From positions 32,001 through 96,000 of the IMG/VR virus record IMGVR_UViG_3300048014_000353: a stretch of DNA of 64,000 nucleotides, one strand, 5' to 3'. The notes below the pieces were generated by a model. That model saw only the letters and a list, made by a program, of their open reading frames with translations. It did not search any database and was not told the origin of the DNA. The translations under genes and the position numbers were made by a program. This stretch comes from a virus. Below are positions 1 to 38,691 of the stretch, one piece after another (the first letter of the stretch is position 1; each line of letters begins with the position of its first letter).

Positions 1-26
1 AAGGGCGGGTAACCAGGAGGCGGAAG

Positions 27-1091
27 ATGCCGAACGTCAACAAAGACATGCTCGTGCTCGCGCGCGAGTCGAGGCGCCTTACGCAGGAAAATCTGGCAAA
101 GCTGGCAGGAGTTGGGCAGGGAACGATTTCAAAGGCCGAGGGCGGCTCTGGCCCAAGCGACGATCTCGTTGCTGCGTACGCGAAGCACCTCCGGTACCCG
201 GTCGAGTTCTTCTACGAGACCCCGCCATCGACGCGGCTGCCGGTCGCCTTCTACCGGAAGAAGAGGTCGGTGGACGTGAAGCACCTTCGCGCCATCGACG
301 CGCAAATGCGCATCTTGCGCATGCACTTGGACAAGCTCCTTCGATCGGTGGAGGCGCCTCCGATGCGGGTCCCTCTGGTGAACCTTCTCCGCGACTATCG
401 CGGCTCGGCGAGCGACCTCGCTCAGGAGTTGCGGCTGCGGTGGCACGTGAAAAAGGGGCCTATCGAGAACATGACAAAGCTCGCCGAATCGCTCGGCGTC
501 TTCGTCATTCGTTGGCACTTCGACACGCCGGATGTCGATGCGCTCAGCATGCACGAGGATGGCTTGCCTCCCGTCATCGTGATCGATGCAGCGATGTCGG
601 GCGACCGCATGCGTTTCACGATCGCGCATGAACTCGCGCATATCATCATGCACCACCATCTCGCGCTCCCAGGGGCCGACTACGAAGCAGAGGCAGACGA
701 GTTTGCGGCGGAGCTGCTGATGCCGAGGGACGAGATAAGGCCATTCCTGCGCGGACTGACCGTCGAAAAGCTCGCGCACCTGAAGGCTCACTGGCGCACC
801 TCGATGGCGTCACTTCTACGTCGGGCCGGCGACCTGGAGGCGATCTCCGAGAGCCAGAGCGCAAAGCTCTGGTCGGTCATGTCCCACCTTGGGTTCAAGC
901 GAAGTGAGCCCGTCGACGTTCCGCAGGAAGAGCCGACGCTCGCGAGGAACCTAGTCGCCTTCCACATGAAGCGGCTCGGCTACAGCGCGAAGGAAATGAG
1001 CTTGATGCTTCCTTGGAGCGAAGAGGAATTCGCTCGCACATATCTGGACGGCGCCACTCGCCGCGCAGGACTCCGAGTCGTGAAGTGGTGA
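27..1091 (+). CDS. XRE-family HTH fused to ImmA/IrrE (Peptidase_M78) metallopeptidase
   Basis: N-terminal HTH (LTQENLAKLAGVGQGTISKAE); RMRFTIAHELAHIIMH with HEXXH and downstream EAEADEFAAELLMP; GGAGG RBS upstream. Confidence 0.92.
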   Translation: MPNVNKDMLVLARESRRLTQENLAKLAGVGQGTISKAEGGSGPSDDLVAAYAKHLRYPVEFFYETPPSTRLPVAFYRKKRSVDVKHLRAIDAQMRILRMHLDKLLRSVEAPPMRVPLVNLLRDYRGSASDLAQELRLRWHVKKGPIENMTKLAESLGVFVIRWHFDTPDVDALSMHEDGLPPVIVIDAAMSGDRMRFTIAHELAHIIMHHHLALPGADYEAEADEFAAELLMPRDEIRPFLRGLTVEKLAHLKAHWRTSMASLLRRAGDLEAISESQSAKLWSVMSHLGFKRSEPVDVPQEEPTLARNLVAFHMKRLGYSAKEMSLMLPWSEEEFARTYLDGATRRAGLRVVKW

Positions 1092-1129
1092 AAACAACGC
1101 CCGAGCGAGGTGACTCGCTCGGGCGTTTT
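1091..1129. terminator. Bidirectional intrinsic terminator-like hairpin
   Basis: AACGCCCGAGCGAG (1096-1109), GTGA loop, CTCGCTCGGGCGTT (1114-1127): 14-bp perfect stem with an A-tract on the left and a T-tract on the right. Confidence 0.8.
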
Positions 1130-1224
1130 GGAAGCTTCGCCGTTCACTGGCGTGATTGAGGGGCTCTACATCCCGAGGCCCGCGGCTGGTACCCGCGTGG
1201 GGTTCGATTCCCGAAGCTTCCGCC
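1130..1224 (+). tRNA. tRNA-Sec-like allo-tRNA, 9/3 acceptor/T-stem, putative CUA (amber) anticodon
   Basis: Acceptor GGAAGCTTC (1130-38) pairs perfectly with GAAGCTTCC (1213-21), followed by G-CC; long D-stem with TGGC tetraloop; loop CT-CTA-CA (1164-70); long variable arm CGCGG/CCGCG; T-arm GGG-TTCGATT-CCC. The ends resemble selC (GGAAG...CTTCCGCC). Confidence 0.8.
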
Positions 1225-1231
1225 TCCGATT

Positions 1232-1540
1232 CTAACTCCGCTTCTTCGCTTCGTCCGCCAGGATCGAAGCGCGCACGGCCATGACCGGCCCGTCCACGGG
1301 CGGCACGCCGAGGATGGCCTTGAAGCGCCGCCGCGTGCCCTCGACGAGAACGCTCCAAGCATACGCACGCGTCGCGCCGCTCGGATGCCCAGCGAGCGCG
1401 AAGACCTTCACGGCGCCCTGCCAGACGATCTCGCCCTTGAAGCGCTCGTCCACCTCGACGGTCTCGACGTAGGTCGCTGGTACCCCGTGGAGATGCTCGA
1501 CGGCCTCGCGCAGTTCGTCGATCGAAACATCGTCGTCCAT
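1232..1540 (-). CDS. Hypothetical protein (102 aa)
   Basis: GC3-rich codons, globular alpha/beta composition, converges on the tRNA 3' end; no recognisable motif. Confidence 0.75.
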   Translation of the reverse strand: MDDDVSIDELREAVEHLHGVPATYVETVEVDERFKGEIVWQGAVKVFALAGHPSGATRAYAWSVLVEGTRRRFKAILGVPPVDGPVMAVRASILADEAKKRS

Positions 1541-1896
1541 GCGGGCGAGTCTACGCGAGCGCGGACGATGCGCAGCGCGTCACGAAAGTTCAAAACCGAC
1601 CAGTGCCGGTGGTAGCGGTCGGCGGCGTTCCTCCATTTCCGGTGCTTTGGAAAACAAGCGTCGTGATTGCCGGCGATGAGGTGGTGGCGGCCGTTGAGCC
1701 GCGGGAGGTAGTCGCGGACGAGGCGGTCGTCGAGGCTGAAGTCTCCGAGGTGGAACGTCTCGTCCTCGGGGCTCACCCGATCGTTGAACCGCGCGACCAG
1801 CGCCTCGTTCATCTCGGCCACGTCGGCAAACGGGCGGCTCGCGTACCGGATGACGGCCGCGTGGCCGTAGTGCTGGTCGGAGGTGAAGAAGATCAA
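1408..1896 (-). pseudogene. Phage calcineurin-like metallophosphoesterase, 3'-truncated
   Basis: FTSDQHYGH, HLGDFS and IAGNHD motifs are present; the C-terminal H...GHxH motifs are missing, and the frame turns to non-family sequence after ...AADRY (~1600) and runs into the next gene. Confidence 0.75.
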
Positions 1897-2369: not shown

Positions 2370-4018
2370 CAGTCCCACCGATCCAGTTCGTACGCCTGGG
2401 TCATCCCCCTGAAGTGCGCGCGCACGCGGAGACCACCCCCGCCGCCCGGTTTTTGCAGCGCGATCCCGCACGCGGTCGCCGACGTCGCCCCGGCGATCGT
2501 CTTGGTGCGCGAGTACGCCTCGAGCACCGCGCGCATCCCGTGGTACTCGCTCTTCAGAATCTCGGGCAAGAGCCCGAGGCCACAGTCTGCGCTCCGCAGA
2601 TCGCGCGCGCCTCGCAGAACGAAGAAAGCTCCCTCGCCGCGGTTGGTGAGATCACTCGTCCAGCACGACGGCTGCAACGTGACGCACTCCACCTCGGTCC
2701 AAGCTCCGGGCGTGAGGTTGAACGTGTGCGCCGGCGAGCCTCGGAGGTGGAAGTACCAACTCACCGGGTTGCGCTTCTCCGTGTGGTCCCACTGGAGGAT
2801 GGGAGGCGCCTCCGGATCGACAGCGGTCACGAACGCGAAGAACGGCGCCGGCATCGAAGGCGTGAGGACCTCGATGCGTTCGGCGTCCGGGAGCACGGTC
2901 CGCGCGAACTTCTCCCACGTGAGCACCTGCGGAGCGGTGACCTCGAGCGGCGCGTTGGCCGCCTTCGCCTTCTTCAGGTGCCCGAAGAGCCCGGCGTCTG
3001 CCGCCGCCGTGGCTGGCGGACCGGGCCGCCAGAGCGCGTGCGGGAGCACGTCCTCGAGCAGAGCGTACCGACGCGCGAAGGCGCCGCCGCTGGCGAGCAT
3101 CGCCATCTGCCGTTCGGCCGCCGCGATCTGCCCGTCGGTGGGGGCCGCCTGCGGCCGCCGGTACTGCGCGGGGTTCATCTTCCCGTCGAACGCGCTCTTG
3201 ATGTCCGCGGCCGACTTGTTCGCCGCGAGATCGTCGAGCAACGTTCCGATCATCGTCGTCCGAACGTGGCAGAAGCCTGCGGGCGCGGTCGCCACCGCGC
3301 GCCACACGAGGTTCTCGCGGCGCGTCCGGTCCGCGGTCGCCTTCCGAGCGTTCTGCAGCGCGAGCAGCCACTCGGCGACCGCGATGCACGACTCTGAGCG
3401 GTACAGGTCCCCGCGCGTGAGGAGGGCGTGGGCCTTCTCGACGAGCTCCAGCGGGTACTCCCCGAGCGCCCGGGAGAGCGTCTGAAAGTCCTGGCCCTTC
3501 TCGGCCATCGCTTGGTCGGCTGAATGGATCGATCCACGGTAGATGCGGTCGAAGCCGGGCTCGACGTGCATGTGGTGCCAGACGCCCCCCTCGGCTTTGG
3601 GGCTCGCGTTCGCCGGGAGCCCCCACACTTTCTCACTCGAAAGGAACACGCCGCGGACGAGCGCGCGGGACACGCGGGTGCGCACAGCGCGGATCGAGGT
3701 CGAGAAGAACGGCGGAGGAATCGCCATGCTCCAGAGGAGCGACGTGGTTTCACCCTTCTCGTCGATGCGGACGAGGCCCCCGAAGTGGTCGACAAAGCGA
3801 CGGCACGCGCGACACTCGTAGTGCGCGCGCCGGTACGCAGGCAGCACTCCGAGGAAGAGATCGTACAGACCGACCCCCATGCTGGTCGTGAACAAGGGCT
3901 CGTCTTTGGGAACGTTCCCCAGCCGCAACGCGTTGAGCAGGAGCGTGAGGAGGTGCTGGTAGTCCTCGTCTTCGCTCGAGTGGCGGGTGTCGGCCGCGAG
4001 AGATCCGATCGTCGTCAT
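2369..4018 (-). CDS. Conserved phage hypothetical protein (~550 aa)
   Basis: Long GC3-rich ORF with HYECRACRRFVDHFGGLVRIDE motif (CxxC); GGAGAGG RBS upstream of ATG 4018. Confidence 0.8.
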   Translation of the reverse strand: MTTIGSLAADTRHSSEDEDYQHLLTLLLNALRLGNVPKDEPLFTTSMGVGLYDLFLGVLPAYRRAHYECRACRRFVDHFGGLVRIDEKGETTSLLWSMAIPPPFFSTSIRAVRTRVSRALVRGVFLSSEKVWGLPANASPKAEGGVWHHMHVEPGFDRIYRGSIHSADQAMAEKGQDFQTLSRALGEYPLELVEKAHALLTRGDLYRSESCIAVAEWLLALQNARKATADRTRRENLVWRAVATAPAGFCHVRTTMIGTLLDDLAANKSAADIKSAFDGKMNPAQYRRPQAAPTDGQIAAAERQMAMLASGGAFARRYALLEDVLPHALWRPGPPATAAADAGLFGHLKKAKAANAPLEVTAPQVLTWEKFARTVLPDAERIEVLTPSMPAPFFAFVTAVDPEAPPILQWDHTEKRNPVSWYFHLRGSPAHTFNLTPGAWTEVECVTLQPSCWTSDLTNRGEGAFFVLRGARDLRSADCGLGLLPEILKSEYHGMRAVLEAYSRTKTIAGATSATACGIALQKPGGGGGLRVRAHFRGMTQAYELDRWD

Positions 4019-11444: not shown

Positions 11445-12109
11445 CACGCGCAACCCTTCAGCGACGACTGGCCCTTCTCGTAGAAGGTGACCGCGCGCAT
11501 CGGGTATCCAAACCCCATGGAGAGACCAAACGCCTTGACGAAGACGCAGCCCTTCGGGGCGTTCGGCACGATGTAGTGCACGAACCCGATTCGCCCGTTC
11601 GGACACACGACACGCGCGGCCTCGCGAAGGAGATGCGAGGGAAGCGGGTAGCCCGTGCCGTACAGCTCCTTCGCGTAGTGCTTGGTGTACGGAGGGTCGA
11701 GAAGCACGCCCGCCATTGACCCGGTCGCGAAGGGGAGATGTCGTCCATCGGCGACGATGTCCGGCTTCGCTTCCGGTCGGATGTCCACGCGAATGCCTTC
11801 GCCCTTTGGCAGACCCCCCGAGCAAACGTGCAGAAGCTCGCTCCGGTCACACTTCAACCACGGGAGGACCTTCGTGATGAACGACGCCGGGTACATGCCG
11901 AGCACGCCGGTCTCTTCGACCGGGTCGCCGAGGTCCTCGAAGAGCATCGAGATGACCGGCCGGCGGGGAGTCCGTCCCTCGATGTTCACCGGGAACGAGG
12001 TTCCGTCGGGTCGCTGCACGCGCGCTCGCTTTGGATTTGGCGTGCGATTGCCGGTCATCGGCCGCTCGCGCCCGGGATGCGGGATGTCCCGCTTTGCGGC
12101 GTGCTTCAC
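11444..12109 (-). CDS. SAM-dependent DNA amino-methyltransferase-like protein
   Basis: LLHVCSG, RVDIRPE...DIVADGRHLPF, LLDPPY, LLREAARV. Confidence 0.75.
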   Translation of the reverse strand: MKHAAKRDIPHPGRERPMTGNRTPNPKRARVQRPDGTSFPVNIEGRTPRRPVISMLFEDLGDPVEETGVLGMYPASFITKVLPWLKCDRSELLHVCSGGLPKGEGIRVDIRPEAKPDIVADGRHLPFATGSMAGVLLDPPYTKHYAKELYGTGYPLPSHLLREAARVVCPNGRIGFVHYIVPNAPKGCVFVKAFGLSMGFGYPMRAVTFYEKGQSSLKGCA

Positions 12110-12603
12110 GGGCCACCAAACGGGATCGGCGTGCGGTCGTACCCGATGTAGAGCGGGTGCTGGGGCGTCCCGTCGCCGTTCAGTTGGAGCGCGAACGTCT
12201 CGCGCCCCGCCGCGTTCAAAAGTCCGAGCACGTGCCTGGCACGCGCCGGCTCGGCGTTCTTCCCCCAGCCGCAGATCACCGGTCCCCCGGCGGTCCCCTC
12301 CACGATGTAGCGGTCGTTGTCAGGGCCGACCGGGTCCTTCACGGTCTTCAGCAACCCCGGGTCCGTCGAGACCCAGGCGTACAGATTCACGATGCGCACG
12401 CGCCGAAAGCCGAGCCTTTGGGCAAAGCCCTGGATCTTGCGACTCGTTGGGTCCTCGATGCCGTCCTCGGCCGCCTTGCTCGGGTTGAGCATGCAGAAGG
12501 ACACCACGTCCCCCTTGTGCTGCTGGAAGAGGTCACCGGTCGGCGCGACCTCGCGCTCGAGCAGGTAGCGGTACGACCGGCAGAGCGAGAAGACTGCGCT
12601 CAT
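12106..12603 (-). CDS. DUF1643 family protein
   Basis: YRYLLER...MLNPS...DPT...VNLYAWVSTDP...GWG...PQHPLY. Confidence 0.88.
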   Translation of the reverse strand: MSAVFSLCRSYRYLLEREVAPTGDLFQQHKGDVVSFCMLNPSKAAEDGIEDPTSRKIQGFAQRLGFRRVRIVNLYAWVSTDPGLLKTVKDPVGPDNDRYIVEGTAGGPVICGWGKNAEPARARHVLGLLNAAGRETFALQLNGDGTPQHPLYIGYDRTPIPFGGP

Positions 12604-37314: not shown

Positions 37315-37338
37315 AAGAATTAGACGATCGCGAGCCGA

Positions 37339-38691
37339 ATGTTCGTAGGCGCCATCCCCATCGAGTGCATCGAGCAACTCGCGGCCGTGATGCCGGTCGA
37401 GTCGTGGCGCCTGGTCTACTCGTGCTGCTCCGGAAGCTTCCGTGCTGACGAAGCGCTCGGGTCACGCTTCCCGATGCTCAGCATCACGTCGAACGACGTG
37501 GCCCTGCTGTCGTGCGCGATCGGCAAGCTGGCGGTCGGAGATGAACTCCCGCTCACGTTCAAGGAGCGCCTCGCGTTCGCCGAGGACGCGATTGGCGGCG
37601 CAAAGGCCGACCCGATGGACCGCGTCGCGGCCGTGATGGTCGCCTTCGCGATGAGCAAGTTCAAGGGGAACAATCTCTTCGCGCAAAAGCACTTCGCGCA
37701 CTACCAAGAGCACTTCGCGCACTACGTTGCGGGTGCCCGAGAGCGCCTCGAGAAGCGTCTCAGTTCGATTCGGATTACTGGCTTCAACGCCTGCGACTTC
37801 CGGGAGCACGCCAAAGAAGGCATCGCGCGCGGCGCGGCCATCGTCGCCTTTCCACCCACGTACAAGCGTGGCTACGAGGCGATGTACAAATTCCTCGAGC
37901 AGAACGTCAACTGGACCCCGCCCACCTACGACCTCTGGGACCCGGAGCTTCTGCCGGAGTGGGTCACGAGCCTCGACGAGGCCGGTGCCAAGTACGCCAT
38001 CTGGGCCGACCACCTCCTGCCGGGGCGCGAGCCAGTCGCGGGCTTCTTCTCCAGCACCAACAAGCCCGTCTACCTGTACGGGTCGAGCACGCAGGCGAGC
38101 GTGCGCCGCAAGGTGCATCCGGTCGAGGCCTTCCGCTACGTCGCGGTCACCCCGGAGCAGGTGAAGAAAGACGCCACAGTGTCCGTCGTGCGCGCGACCA
38201 GCGCGCAGATGAACTTCCTGAAGGACCACTACCTCGCCAAGGGGATCGCGCACATCTCGGGGCAGTTCAACTTCCTCGTGCTGCTCTCCGGGCGTCTCGT
38301 CGGCGGGTTCATCCTCGCCCGCGACAAGTTCGGTCACGGCGACTCCGCGTACCTCCTGAGCGACTTCTCGATCGTTCGAGAGAACCGACTCTCCAAGCTC
38401 GTCGCGATGATGGCCACGTCTAGGCCGGTCATCGACATCGTCGAGCGGGCTCTCTTCCAGCGAATCCGCAAGATCTCCACGACGGCATTCACCGACAAGC
38501 CGGTGAGCATGAAGTACCGCTGGATCTTCACCCTCGTGGGTCGCAAAGAGAAGCATCTGAATTACGAAAGCGCCGTGAGGCCTGGTGACTACCAAAGCAT
38601 CTACCGGGAGTGGTTCCGAAAGTACGCCCAAGCCGGCGACCCCGGGGGTCGAGCCGCTCCGGGTGGAGCCGCGCAAGGTTCGCCTTCGTGA
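37339..38691 (+). CDS. Antirestriction-type adenine methyltransferase-like domain fused to a GNAT/Mom-like domain
   Basis: SAM-loop-like SCCSGSF and FPPTY (DPPY variant); C-terminal DHYL...LVGGF...YLLSDF...RLSKLV...TTAFT..PVSMKYR has a GNAT-like element order (inference). Confidence 0.7.
   Translation: MFVGAIPIECIEQLAAVMPVESWRLVYSCCSGSFRADEALGSRFPMLSITSNDVALLSCAIGKLAVGDELPLTFKERLAFAEDAIGGAKADPMDRVAAVMVAFAMSKFKGNNLFAQKHFAHYQEHFAHYVAGARERLEKRLSSIRITGFNACDFREHAKEGIARGAAIVAFPPTYKRGYEAMYKFLEQNVNWTPPTYDLWDPELLPEWVTSLDEAGAKYAIWADHLLPGREPVAGFFSSTNKPVYLYGSSTQASVRRKVHPVEAFRYVAVTPEQVKKDATVSVVRATSAQMNFLKDHYLAKGIAHISGQFNFLVLLSGRLVGGFILARDKFGHGDSAYLLSDFSIVRENRLSKLVAMMATSRPVIDIVERALFQRIRKISTTAFTDKPVSMKYRWIFTLVGRKEKHLNYESAVRPGDYQSIYREWFRKYAQAGDPGGRAAPGGAAQGSPS

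Follow-up and report, generated by a model that had tools for sequence, protein, structure and literature searches.

An IS1-related transposon in a phage gene carries a member of a conserved family of 9/3 allo-tRNA-like RNAs with an amber-type loop

The RNA gene and the transposon that carries it

The stretch analysed here, referred to as the window, comprises 64,000 nucleotides (bases 32001-96000) of a 138,550-bp IMG/VR virus record with 67% GC and an estimated completeness of 82%. Close to its left end, positions 1130-1222 form an intact gene that belongs to a small and conserved family of 9/3 allo-tRNAs derived from the selenocysteine tRNA (tRNA-Sec), and this gene is cargo of a 3,756-bp IS1-related transposon inserted in a phage phosphoesterase gene, not native to the phage (Table 1). 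In the element it is preceded by a transposase gene on the minus strand, an open reading frame (ORF) of 208 residues, a gene for a protein with XRE-type helix-turn-helix (XRE-HTH) and M78 peptidase domains and a hairpin, and is followed by a small protein gene. An earlier note on this DNA had drawn a 93-nt cloverleaf with a 9-bp acceptor stem, a 3-bp T stem, a D tetraloop, a long variable (V) arm, G73 and a CUA loop, and each of these elements lies where it had been placed. The note had also argued, rightly, that an 8/4 or 8/5 fold does not fit and that the long V arm and G73 are serine-type marks on a gene of the 9/3 allo-tRNA type; G1213 already falls within the acceptor stem and makes 8/4 or 8/5 impossible. 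The irregularities to which it drew attention are real too: a weak anticodon stem with one G-U pair and an A-G mismatch below it (A1159/G1175), a C at position 37, and a T-tract right before the RNA.

With default settings ARAGORN called no tRNA in the window, and at an 80% threshold the candidate RNA appeared as one among 383 calls; Rfam at gathering thresholds gave no match in the window either. The covariance model for tRNA-Sec (RF01852), a check suggested in the earlier note, scored the RNA at 33.3 bits (E 3.7e-5) in a permissive local search, below the gathering score of 47. A 9/3 model made from five published scaffolds, their anticodons masked, gave the candidate 34.7 bits as its sole match within the 64 kb; it scored the family at 20-58 bits and true selC genes at 36-44 bits, and so does not separate the family from tRNA-Sec. 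The single-sequence minimum free energy (MFE) z-score was only -1.41 and the MFE fold lacked the anticodon arm, which is not supportive when taken alone. The candidate is not unusually stable by itself, and the case therefore rests on comparative evidence.

The ends of the transposon are precisely defined. The arms of its inverted repeats, 32 nt long, are 81% complementary overall and perfect over the terminal 19 nt (GGCACTGGTCGGTTTTGAA), and an 8-bp target-site duplication lies outside them. Excision in silico of the element together with one repeat copy yields a single 208-codon frame with the motifs DxH, GD, GNHD and GHVH, and phrog_547, a phosphoesterase family, is matched by both halves of the interrupted gene, by one at profile positions 31-118 and by the other at 137-201. 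What we see is a phage gene cleanly interrupted by a recent transposition. The tRNA, which the earlier note had taken as phage-borne, is not an invention of the phage: inverted repeats, target-site duplication and gene restoration identify it as transposon cargo. Moreover, its relatives lie in bacterial and metagenomic contigs, where the neighbours are again this transposase family and the small protein. The note's alternative of an attachment-site relic of a host tRNA gene is excluded as well, the gene being complete in both halves and internal to the boundaries set by the inverted repeats and the target duplication, 354 bp away from the right repeat; a Pfam scan of neighbouring genes, moreover, showed no integrase. 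That the RNA might instead be a true selenocysteine tRNA reading UAG is suggested by its resemblance to tRNA-Sec, including the GGAAG...CUUCCG ends and the D and T loops that true selC genes share with it, but its branch is 9/3 where tRNA-Sec has 8/5, its loop differs from CUUCAAA and its score stays below the Rfam threshold. Relic and selenocysteine tRNA, taken as one explanation, are very improbable.

The transposase matches the Pfam models DDE_Tnp_IS1 (E 8.6e-7) and IS240 (E 2.5e-6), and reaches 64 bits with the NCBIfam model transpos_IS1, below its cut-off of 100. A tblastn search of the phage ORFs against the loci of the RNA family (loci are cited by L numbers) found copies of it, with 47-68% identity, beside the RNA in L163, L142, L220, L188 and L317. 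In L220 (11456-12098), the locus of the closest RNA homologue, the transposase matches in two overlapping frames and is probably frameshifted. The gene immediately upstream of the RNA, with Pfam domains HTH_3 and Peptidase_M78, resembles the RosmerTA antitoxin RmrA (PADLOC, E 5e-60; NCBIfam spr1629-family antitoxin, E 5e-24). The adjoining 208-aa ORF matched neither RmrT nor any other family in PADLOC, Pfam or NCBIfam; weak relatives of it adjoin RmrA-like genes in L377 and L367, and it is a possible candidate for the RosmerTA toxin. Outside the element, the split phosphoesterase adjoins a gene for a 433-aa protein with an RlaP domain (RNA repair pathway DNA polymerase beta family) on the minus strand (L269 2203-3501, genome 28203-29501); the two may form a phage RNA-repair gene pair.

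Table 1. Features of the RNA gene, its transposon and the interrupted phage gene (positions in the window unless marked as genome positions)
Feature	Position	Strand	Remarks
9/3 allo-tRNA-like gene, 93 nt	1130..1222	+	sequence; Rfam tRNA-Sec 33.3 bits; family model R1 89.5 bits; covariation
Acceptor stem	1130-1138 (GGAAGCTTC) / 1213-1221 (GAAGCTTCC)	+	perfect 9 bp
D arm	1141-1158	+	4 Watson-Crick pairs (TCAC/GTGA), U-U mismatch, G-U, C-G; tetraloop UGGC
Anticodon arm	GGGG 1160-1163 / TCCC 1171-1174	+	one G-U; loop CUCUACA
Anticodon CUA; C37	1166-1168; 1169	+	loop letters C32 U33 C34 U35 A36 C37 A38
V arm	1181-1197	+	CGCGG 1181-1185 / CCGCG 1193-1197
T arm	1200-1212	+	GGG 1200-1202, TTCGATT, CCC 1210-1212; 3-bp stem, canonical T loop
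Discriminator G73	G1222	+	followed by CC 1223-1224, then T
Conserved 102-aa protein gene	1232..1540	-	converges on RNA; alpha-beta4-alpha fold
Hairpin, perfect 14-bp, GC-rich	1096..1129 (arms 1096-1109/1114-1127)		abuts RNA 5' end
XRE-HTH + M78 peptidase gene (RosmerTA antitoxin RmrA-like)	27..1091	+	transposon cargo immediately upstream of RNA
208-aa cargo ORF, 3' end	1..12	+	remainder left of window; genome 31386-32012
DDE transposase, 281 aa	genome 30421-31263	-	Pfam, NCBIfam matches
Transposon	genome 29852-33607 = window -2148 to 1607		bounded by 32-nt imperfect inverted repeats
Right terminal inverted repeat (...TTCAAAACCGACCAGTGCC)	1576..1607		left repeat at genome 29852-29883
Right copy of 8-bp target-site duplication GGTGGTAG	1608..1615		left copy genome 29844-29851
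Phage metallophosphoesterase, N-terminal 111 codons	1616..1950	-	C-terminal 96 codons at genome 29563-29850

The RNA family, its covariation and its loop

In a BLAST search of 50,697 GenBank phage records the RNA found matches to its T arm only and no close homologue, an exact 22-nt pattern gave nothing in IMG/VR, and searches anchored on the XRE-M78 gene and on DnaB gave no related loci. Scanning of metagenome contigs with the pattern CTCTACA-N26-40-GGGTTCGATTCCC returned 108 loci. In 11 of these a fold screen recognised an acceptor of 9 bp and a T stem of 3 bp, correctly spaced; perfect 9/9 acceptors numbered ten, against ~0.6 expected by chance among ~130 loci. The screened loci also have in common features for which they had not been selected, namely a GGA start and a UCC-G end, G73, a D loop of the type UGGY and a conserved U behind the D stem. 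Thirteen further members of the family were found, in metagenomes, viral contigs and one Phycisphaerae metagenome-assembled genome (MAG), the closest relatives of the candidate being those in L220 (87% identity over 95 nt) and L201 (89% over 74 nt). In 150 genomes each of Myxococcota and Planctomycetota, the family model R1 found true selC only, besides the one Phycisphaerae MAG. The true selC genes of these phyla share the GGAAG...CUUCCG ends and the D and T loops with the RNA family, which indicates a tRNA-Sec origin; tRNA-Sec is probably the evolutionary source of the family.

It is the covariation among the members that carries the case for a maintained RNA. L201 differs from the candidate in four acceptor pairs, and all four differences are compensated. 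RNAalifold recovered the acceptor, D, anticodon (3 bp) and T stems from a plain MAFFT alignment. In the 14-member alignment, which was fitted to the model and in which acceptor pairing had been part of the screen for 11 members, 97.7% of the cells pair, as against 78.8% in shuffles, and 14 of the 19 pairs change on both sides; the observed values were reached in none of 500 shuffles, and controls with slid partners gave 39-61% paired. The D stem was not screened, yet its four core pairs all covary; it has 4-7 layers and carries a UGGC or UGGU tetraloop. V stems measure 4-8 bp and differ in sequence in every member. The 9/3 arrangement, with compensatory changes, is found in 13 of 14 members, L317 being 8/4-like. 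In contrast to these changing stems, pairs 1-72 and 2-71 are invariant (both G-C), pair 3-70 is A-U in 13 of 14 (pairs 4-9 vary), position 73 is G in 12 and U in two, the UGG of the D loop varies hardly or not at all, and the first 12 members all have the T arm and loop GGGTTCGATTCCC, the T loop of L318 being UUCGAAU. CCA is encoded in L188, L201 and L318.

The double compensations in the stems, together with the invariant loop and identity positions, argue for purifying selection on the RNA, not drift, and the search for covariation across homologues for which the earlier note had called shows the RNA to be evolutionarily maintained. These data bear directly on the idea of an inert hitch-hiker, a pseudogene derived from tRNA-Sec or an allo-tRNA and copied along with the transposon. 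Such a pseudogene would fit the lack of a visible promoter, the weak anticodon stem with its C at position 37 and the visibly degraded versions of the RNA in L317 and L333, and an allo-tRNA pseudogene beside a transposon-related ORF has been described (Mukai et al., PMC5389517). It would not explain why double compensations keep the stems across members with widely differing stem sequences, nor why the loop and the identity positions are held invariant, and we consider it improbable.

The loop CUCUACA, C37 included, is identical in all 14 members. The first search pattern had fixed CTCTACA, and routes independent of the loop were used as a control. A pattern free of the anticodon (GGAAG...GGGTTCGATTCCC-N4-CTTCC) found no member in IMG/VR and a single one among 185,579 species genomes, L253 in the Phycisphaerae MAG, with the same loop. 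Anchoring on the small protein in IMG/VR gave L318 (79.6 bits), which the first pattern had missed because of its T loop, and L317, both with CUCUACA; the same loop is seen in L333, a truncated tRNA-like remnant. The loop-independent sample is small, three loci, but its members all have the same loop, and the whole 7-nt loop, C37 included, is therefore taken to be under selection. Stem pairs 4-9 and the D and V stems drift freely while the loop stays fixed.

Decoding, UAG use and the convergent protein gene

What the RNA does is best approached from its tRNA-like features. We lean, tentatively and at somewhat less than even confidence, towards a chargeable Ser-type tRNA that would read UAG weakly. 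The nucleotides of the tRNA tertiary contacts are retained, marks of the kind used by seryl-tRNA synthetase (SerRS) are present, and U33 stands in a 7-nt loop. Such acceptor pairs, G73 and a long V arm reportedly make up the SerRS set in the work of Normanly and colleagues on the identity of E. coli tRNA-Ser. Also in favour, 9/3 scaffolds given a CUA anticodon suppress amber codons efficiently in E. coli, with Ser inserted when G73 is present (PMC5389517, PMC7590224). In the pathway that we envisage, the RNA would be transcribed, possibly with the upstream hairpin as a leader, would be matured by RNase P and the CCA-adding enzyme, and would fold to an L shape with the retained GG of the D loop and the canonical T loop. 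The host SerRS would then charge it with serine by way of the long V arm, G73 and the pairs G1-C72, G2-C71 and A3-U70, and the invariant CUA would read UAG, weakly, owing to C37 and the anticodon stem of 3-4 bp. The outcome would be low-level read-through of amber stops with Ser in any cell that carries the transposon; the phage, whose own genes use TAG as an ordinary stop, would be an accidental carrier.

Several observations weigh against a decoding tRNA. Almost all decoding tRNAs have a purine at position 37, where this family has a conserved C; across the family, moreover, the anticodon stem consists of 3-4 standard pairs, with a recurrent A/G mismatch next to them. C37 and the short stem argue against efficient decoding, and they weaken the earlier note's idea of UAG suppression or of sabotage directed at host or competitor genes. 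The published allo-tRNA scaffolds all have A37 (PMC7590224), allo-tRNAs are described as having long anticodon stems (PMC5389517), and in E. coli no activity was seen for six irregular allo-tRNA(UAU) species whose anticodon had been changed to CUA (PMC5389517). No sigma-70-like promoter was found for the RNA, which starts directly after the hairpin and TTTT. Nor was an in-frame TAG found in the four genes of the transposon or in the phage genes tested, and the transposases of four RNA-bearing elements translate without stops; none of the tested genes having a TAG in need of read-through, no client codon was found. The small protein gene itself ends in TAG in three of eight RNA-linked copies, as against three of five copies without the RNA, so that its use of TAG does not track the presence of the RNA. 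Finally, the invariance of the loop fits recognition by a protein or by another RNA equally well.

The use of TAG in the phage genome bears on a different possibility, namely a suppressor tRNA evolved by the phage to serve TAG-recoded genes of its own. The contig does belong to a phage with a cluster of 29 canonical tRNA genes to the right of the window (genome 127821-132244), covering most amino acids and none with CUA, and many ORFs with a high G+C content at third codon positions (GC3) look interrupted by TAG. But these broken ORFs are antisense shadows, with GC1 < GC2 and long TGA-terminated genes opposite them. The in-frame candidate pairs tested are separate genes (a ParB-like gene then the next gene; a head-tail adaptor then a tail completion gene), and in a third in-frame candidate the TAGs precede the start codon. 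The earlier note had seen no TAG-interrupted phage gene, and on this point we agree. Most phage genes end in TGA, and TAG ends ~20 ordinary ones. These findings, and the fact that the RNA lies far from the tRNA cluster within a recently inserted transposon, make a suppressor of phage origin hardly credible. As a side observation, on the plus strand of the window (37336-38688) phage DAM-like domain 1 is fused to a phage GNAT-like domain (phrog_7858), and the ParB-like nuclease gene that ends in TAG follows.

The gene that converges on the RNA offers a contrasting explanation. Its TAG stop (1232-1234) lies 9 nt beyond G1222 and 7 nt beyond CC 1223-1224. Homologues of the small protein, with 46-62% identity, are encoded in L142, L220, L223, L201, L197, L318 and L317. 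RNA and small gene converge in seven of 15 loci; in six of these their ends lie between an overlap of 10 nt (L318) and a gap of 51 nt, in L201 the convergent gene is ~400 nt away, and L197, an eighth locus, has the gene ~860 nt from the RNA in another orientation. The L201 reading frame (12047-12553, plus strand) is open further upstream, with zinc-ribbon-like CxxC...CxxC motifs ahead of the conserved domain. The protein has 131 database homologues, the one named match being from a Polyangiaceae MAG, and its AlphaFold2 (AF2) model is a compact alpha-beta4-alpha fold (pLDDT 92). No family was found for it in Pfam, NCBIfam, PHROG or PADLOC, no relative by sequence in the PDB and no match with Foldseek; its best VIA Z, 6.3, is to generic cystatin/NTF2-like folds, and a weak match to chlorophyllase was judged spurious. 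Upstream of the RNA, the hairpin is flanked by AAAACAA on its left and by TTTT (1126-1129) on its right; a comparable GC-rich hairpin, varying in sequence, stands 4-12 nt upstream of the RNA in most family loci. The phage hairpin scores as a terminator on the minus strand; placed beyond the RNA in that direction, it would give the small gene an mRNA that contains the antisense of the RNA.

The main rival to the decoding tRNA, somewhat less probable than it, is that the RNA does not decode at all but is a tRNA-like half of a two-part module with the convergent ~100-aa protein, CUCUACA being a recognition site and not an anticodon. Either the protein would bind the RNA, or the RNA would act as a cis-antisense to the 3' end of the protein's mRNA, and the transposon would benefit from the module, for example through addiction, immunity or the control of transposition. 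Consistent with this are the convergence in seven of the 15 loci, with L197 as an eighth in another orientation, the antisense-bearing mRNA that the minus-strand terminator would produce, the conservation of C37 and of the A/G mismatch, which are not random, the inactivity in translation of related irregular allo-tRNAs (PMC5389517), and a confidently predicted, compact protein without an enzyme-like match. Against it, each partner also occurs alone. The small protein is often found without the RNA, in six Myxococcota genomes, in none of which the RNA lies within 1.5 kb, and in L319-L323; L321 includes a 790-bp mini-element (2704-3493) with only the small gene between two repeats of the same family (GGTAGTGTCCTAATTTGA...), without transposase or RNA. 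Conversely, the RNA stands without the small protein in L163, L188, L207 and L245. Besides, the SerRS-type acceptor pairs, G73, U33 and the 7-nt loop suit a working tRNA, and a protein ligand would not obviously need them. No second TGTAGAG, the target expected for the loop, occurs inside the transposon.

The wider transposon family puts the RNA in perspective. Anchoring on the transposase gave 78 IMG/VR loci, most with matching pairs of inverted repeats (consensus GGTAGTG..C.AGTTTGA), in elements of ~1.5-5 kb with cargo between the transposase and one end. RmrA-like genes are carried by nine of them, the small protein by four and the CUA family RNA by just one (L375, on the contig of L317), so that the RNA counts as optional cargo, not as a core part of this insertion sequence (IS) family. 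At least five of the loci (L338, L343, L354, L373 and L396, at about 3120-3380 in each) contain irregular tRNA genes, called by ARAGORN as Tyr-AUA/GUA, Gly-UCC, Cys-ACA or undetermined, which lie 120-283 nt upstream of the transposase and, in L338 and L354, within the mapped repeat pair. In L317 (3451-3548, minus strand) a second irregular tRNA-like sequence, scoring 17.7 bits, stands 4 nt upstream of the 8/4-like family member, and recalls the 'polycistrons of irregular tRNAs' of PMC5389517.

Relation to known systems and meaning

The RNA family is closest to the 9/3 allo-tRNAs (Mukai, Soll and colleagues 2017, PMC5389517; PMC7590224), with which it shares a 12-bp acceptor branch split 9/3, a tRNA-Sec-like D arm with a UGGY tetraloop, a long V arm and G73 or U73. 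The discovery of allo-tRNAs came from matches below the threshold of the tRNA-Sec model (PMC5389517), and the candidate too resembles that model without being tRNA-Sec (33.3 bits versus 47). The sources (soil, peat and sediment metagenomes) and the association with toxin-antitoxin and transposon-related genes are likewise the same. In contrast, the anticodon here is naturally CUA, whereas the natural 9/3 species in the 2017 survey were Arg, Leu and ochre only (PMC5389517); C37 replaces A37; the anticodon stem has 3-4 pairs and the recurrent A/G mismatch where the class has a long stem; the 7-nt loop is invariant in a class of highly diverse anticodons; and there is a defined carrier, the IS1-related cargo transposon, with a recurrent convergent gene for a ~100-aa protein. 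What is new with respect to the published class is a 9/3 family that is amber by nature, keeps the loop CUCUACA frozen and comes with such a carrier and a partner protein.

With the allo-tRNA(UAU) group and the irregular tRNA polycistrons (PMC5389517) the family shares irregular cloverleaves, destabilised stems, links to transposable elements and toxin-antitoxin genes and doubtful activity in translation, and its related IS copies carry irregular tRNAs within their inverted repeats, as L317 has its second tRNA-like gene; those RNAs are mostly 8/4 with UAU, whereas this family is 9/3 with CUA. Bacterial tRNA-Sec (selC, RF01852) has the same GGAAG 5' and CUUCCG 3' ends, a CUGGUG-type D loop, the GGGUUCGAUUCCC T arm and a long V arm, but an 8/5 branch, the loop CUUCAAA (UCA, A37) and scores above the Rfam threshold, in contrast to 9/3, CUCUACA and 33 bits versus 47. 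Canonical class II tRNAs (Ser, Leu, Tyr) have a 7/5 branch and are detected by ARAGORN at default settings, neither of which applies to the candidate. With IS1-family elements that bear passenger genes the transposon shares a DDE transposase that matches IS1 models, repeats starting with GG and an 8-bp target duplication; it differs from them in a transposase below the NCBIfam IS1 cut-off (64 versus 100 bits) and in its size of 3.76 kb, with a cargo of a RosmerTA-like antitoxin gene, an ORF for a possible toxin, the tRNA-like gene and the gene of the small protein. The suppressor tRNAs of recoded phages are also CUA-anticodon tRNA genes on large phage contigs, but they are canonical 7/5 tRNAs that serve in-frame TAG, whereas the present gene is transposon cargo in a phage without recoding. 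Many viral contigs in IMG/VR (for instance L035, L081, L018, L055, L049 and L074) have canonical 7/5 CUA tRNAs with A37 and a long V arm containing CUGAAG; these look like ordinary phage amber suppressors, unrelated to the candidate family.

Allo-tRNAs are a published, functionally unexplained class, engineered CUA versions of which are used in synthetic biology as efficient amber suppressors. To this class the present case adds a natural 9/3 family that already has CUA, in a frozen loop and with a C37 that should weaken decoding. It also adds a precisely bounded vehicle, an IS1-related cargo transposon caught disrupting a phage gene, and a recurrent protein partner. A 'phage suppressor tRNA' can thus be an accidental passenger. 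On balance we think it less likely than not, but worth stating, that the RNA, with its invariant loop, and the convergent ~100-aa cystatin-like protein form a functional RNA-protein unit of the IS1-related cargo-transposon family, acting in transposon maintenance, immunity or control and not (only) in decoding; if they do, DDE transposons would have an RNA component of a kind not described before. In any event, the locus offers a concrete and testable case of the question whether code-altering tRNAs are spread by mobile elements or whether these elements put tRNA-shaped RNAs to uses of their own.

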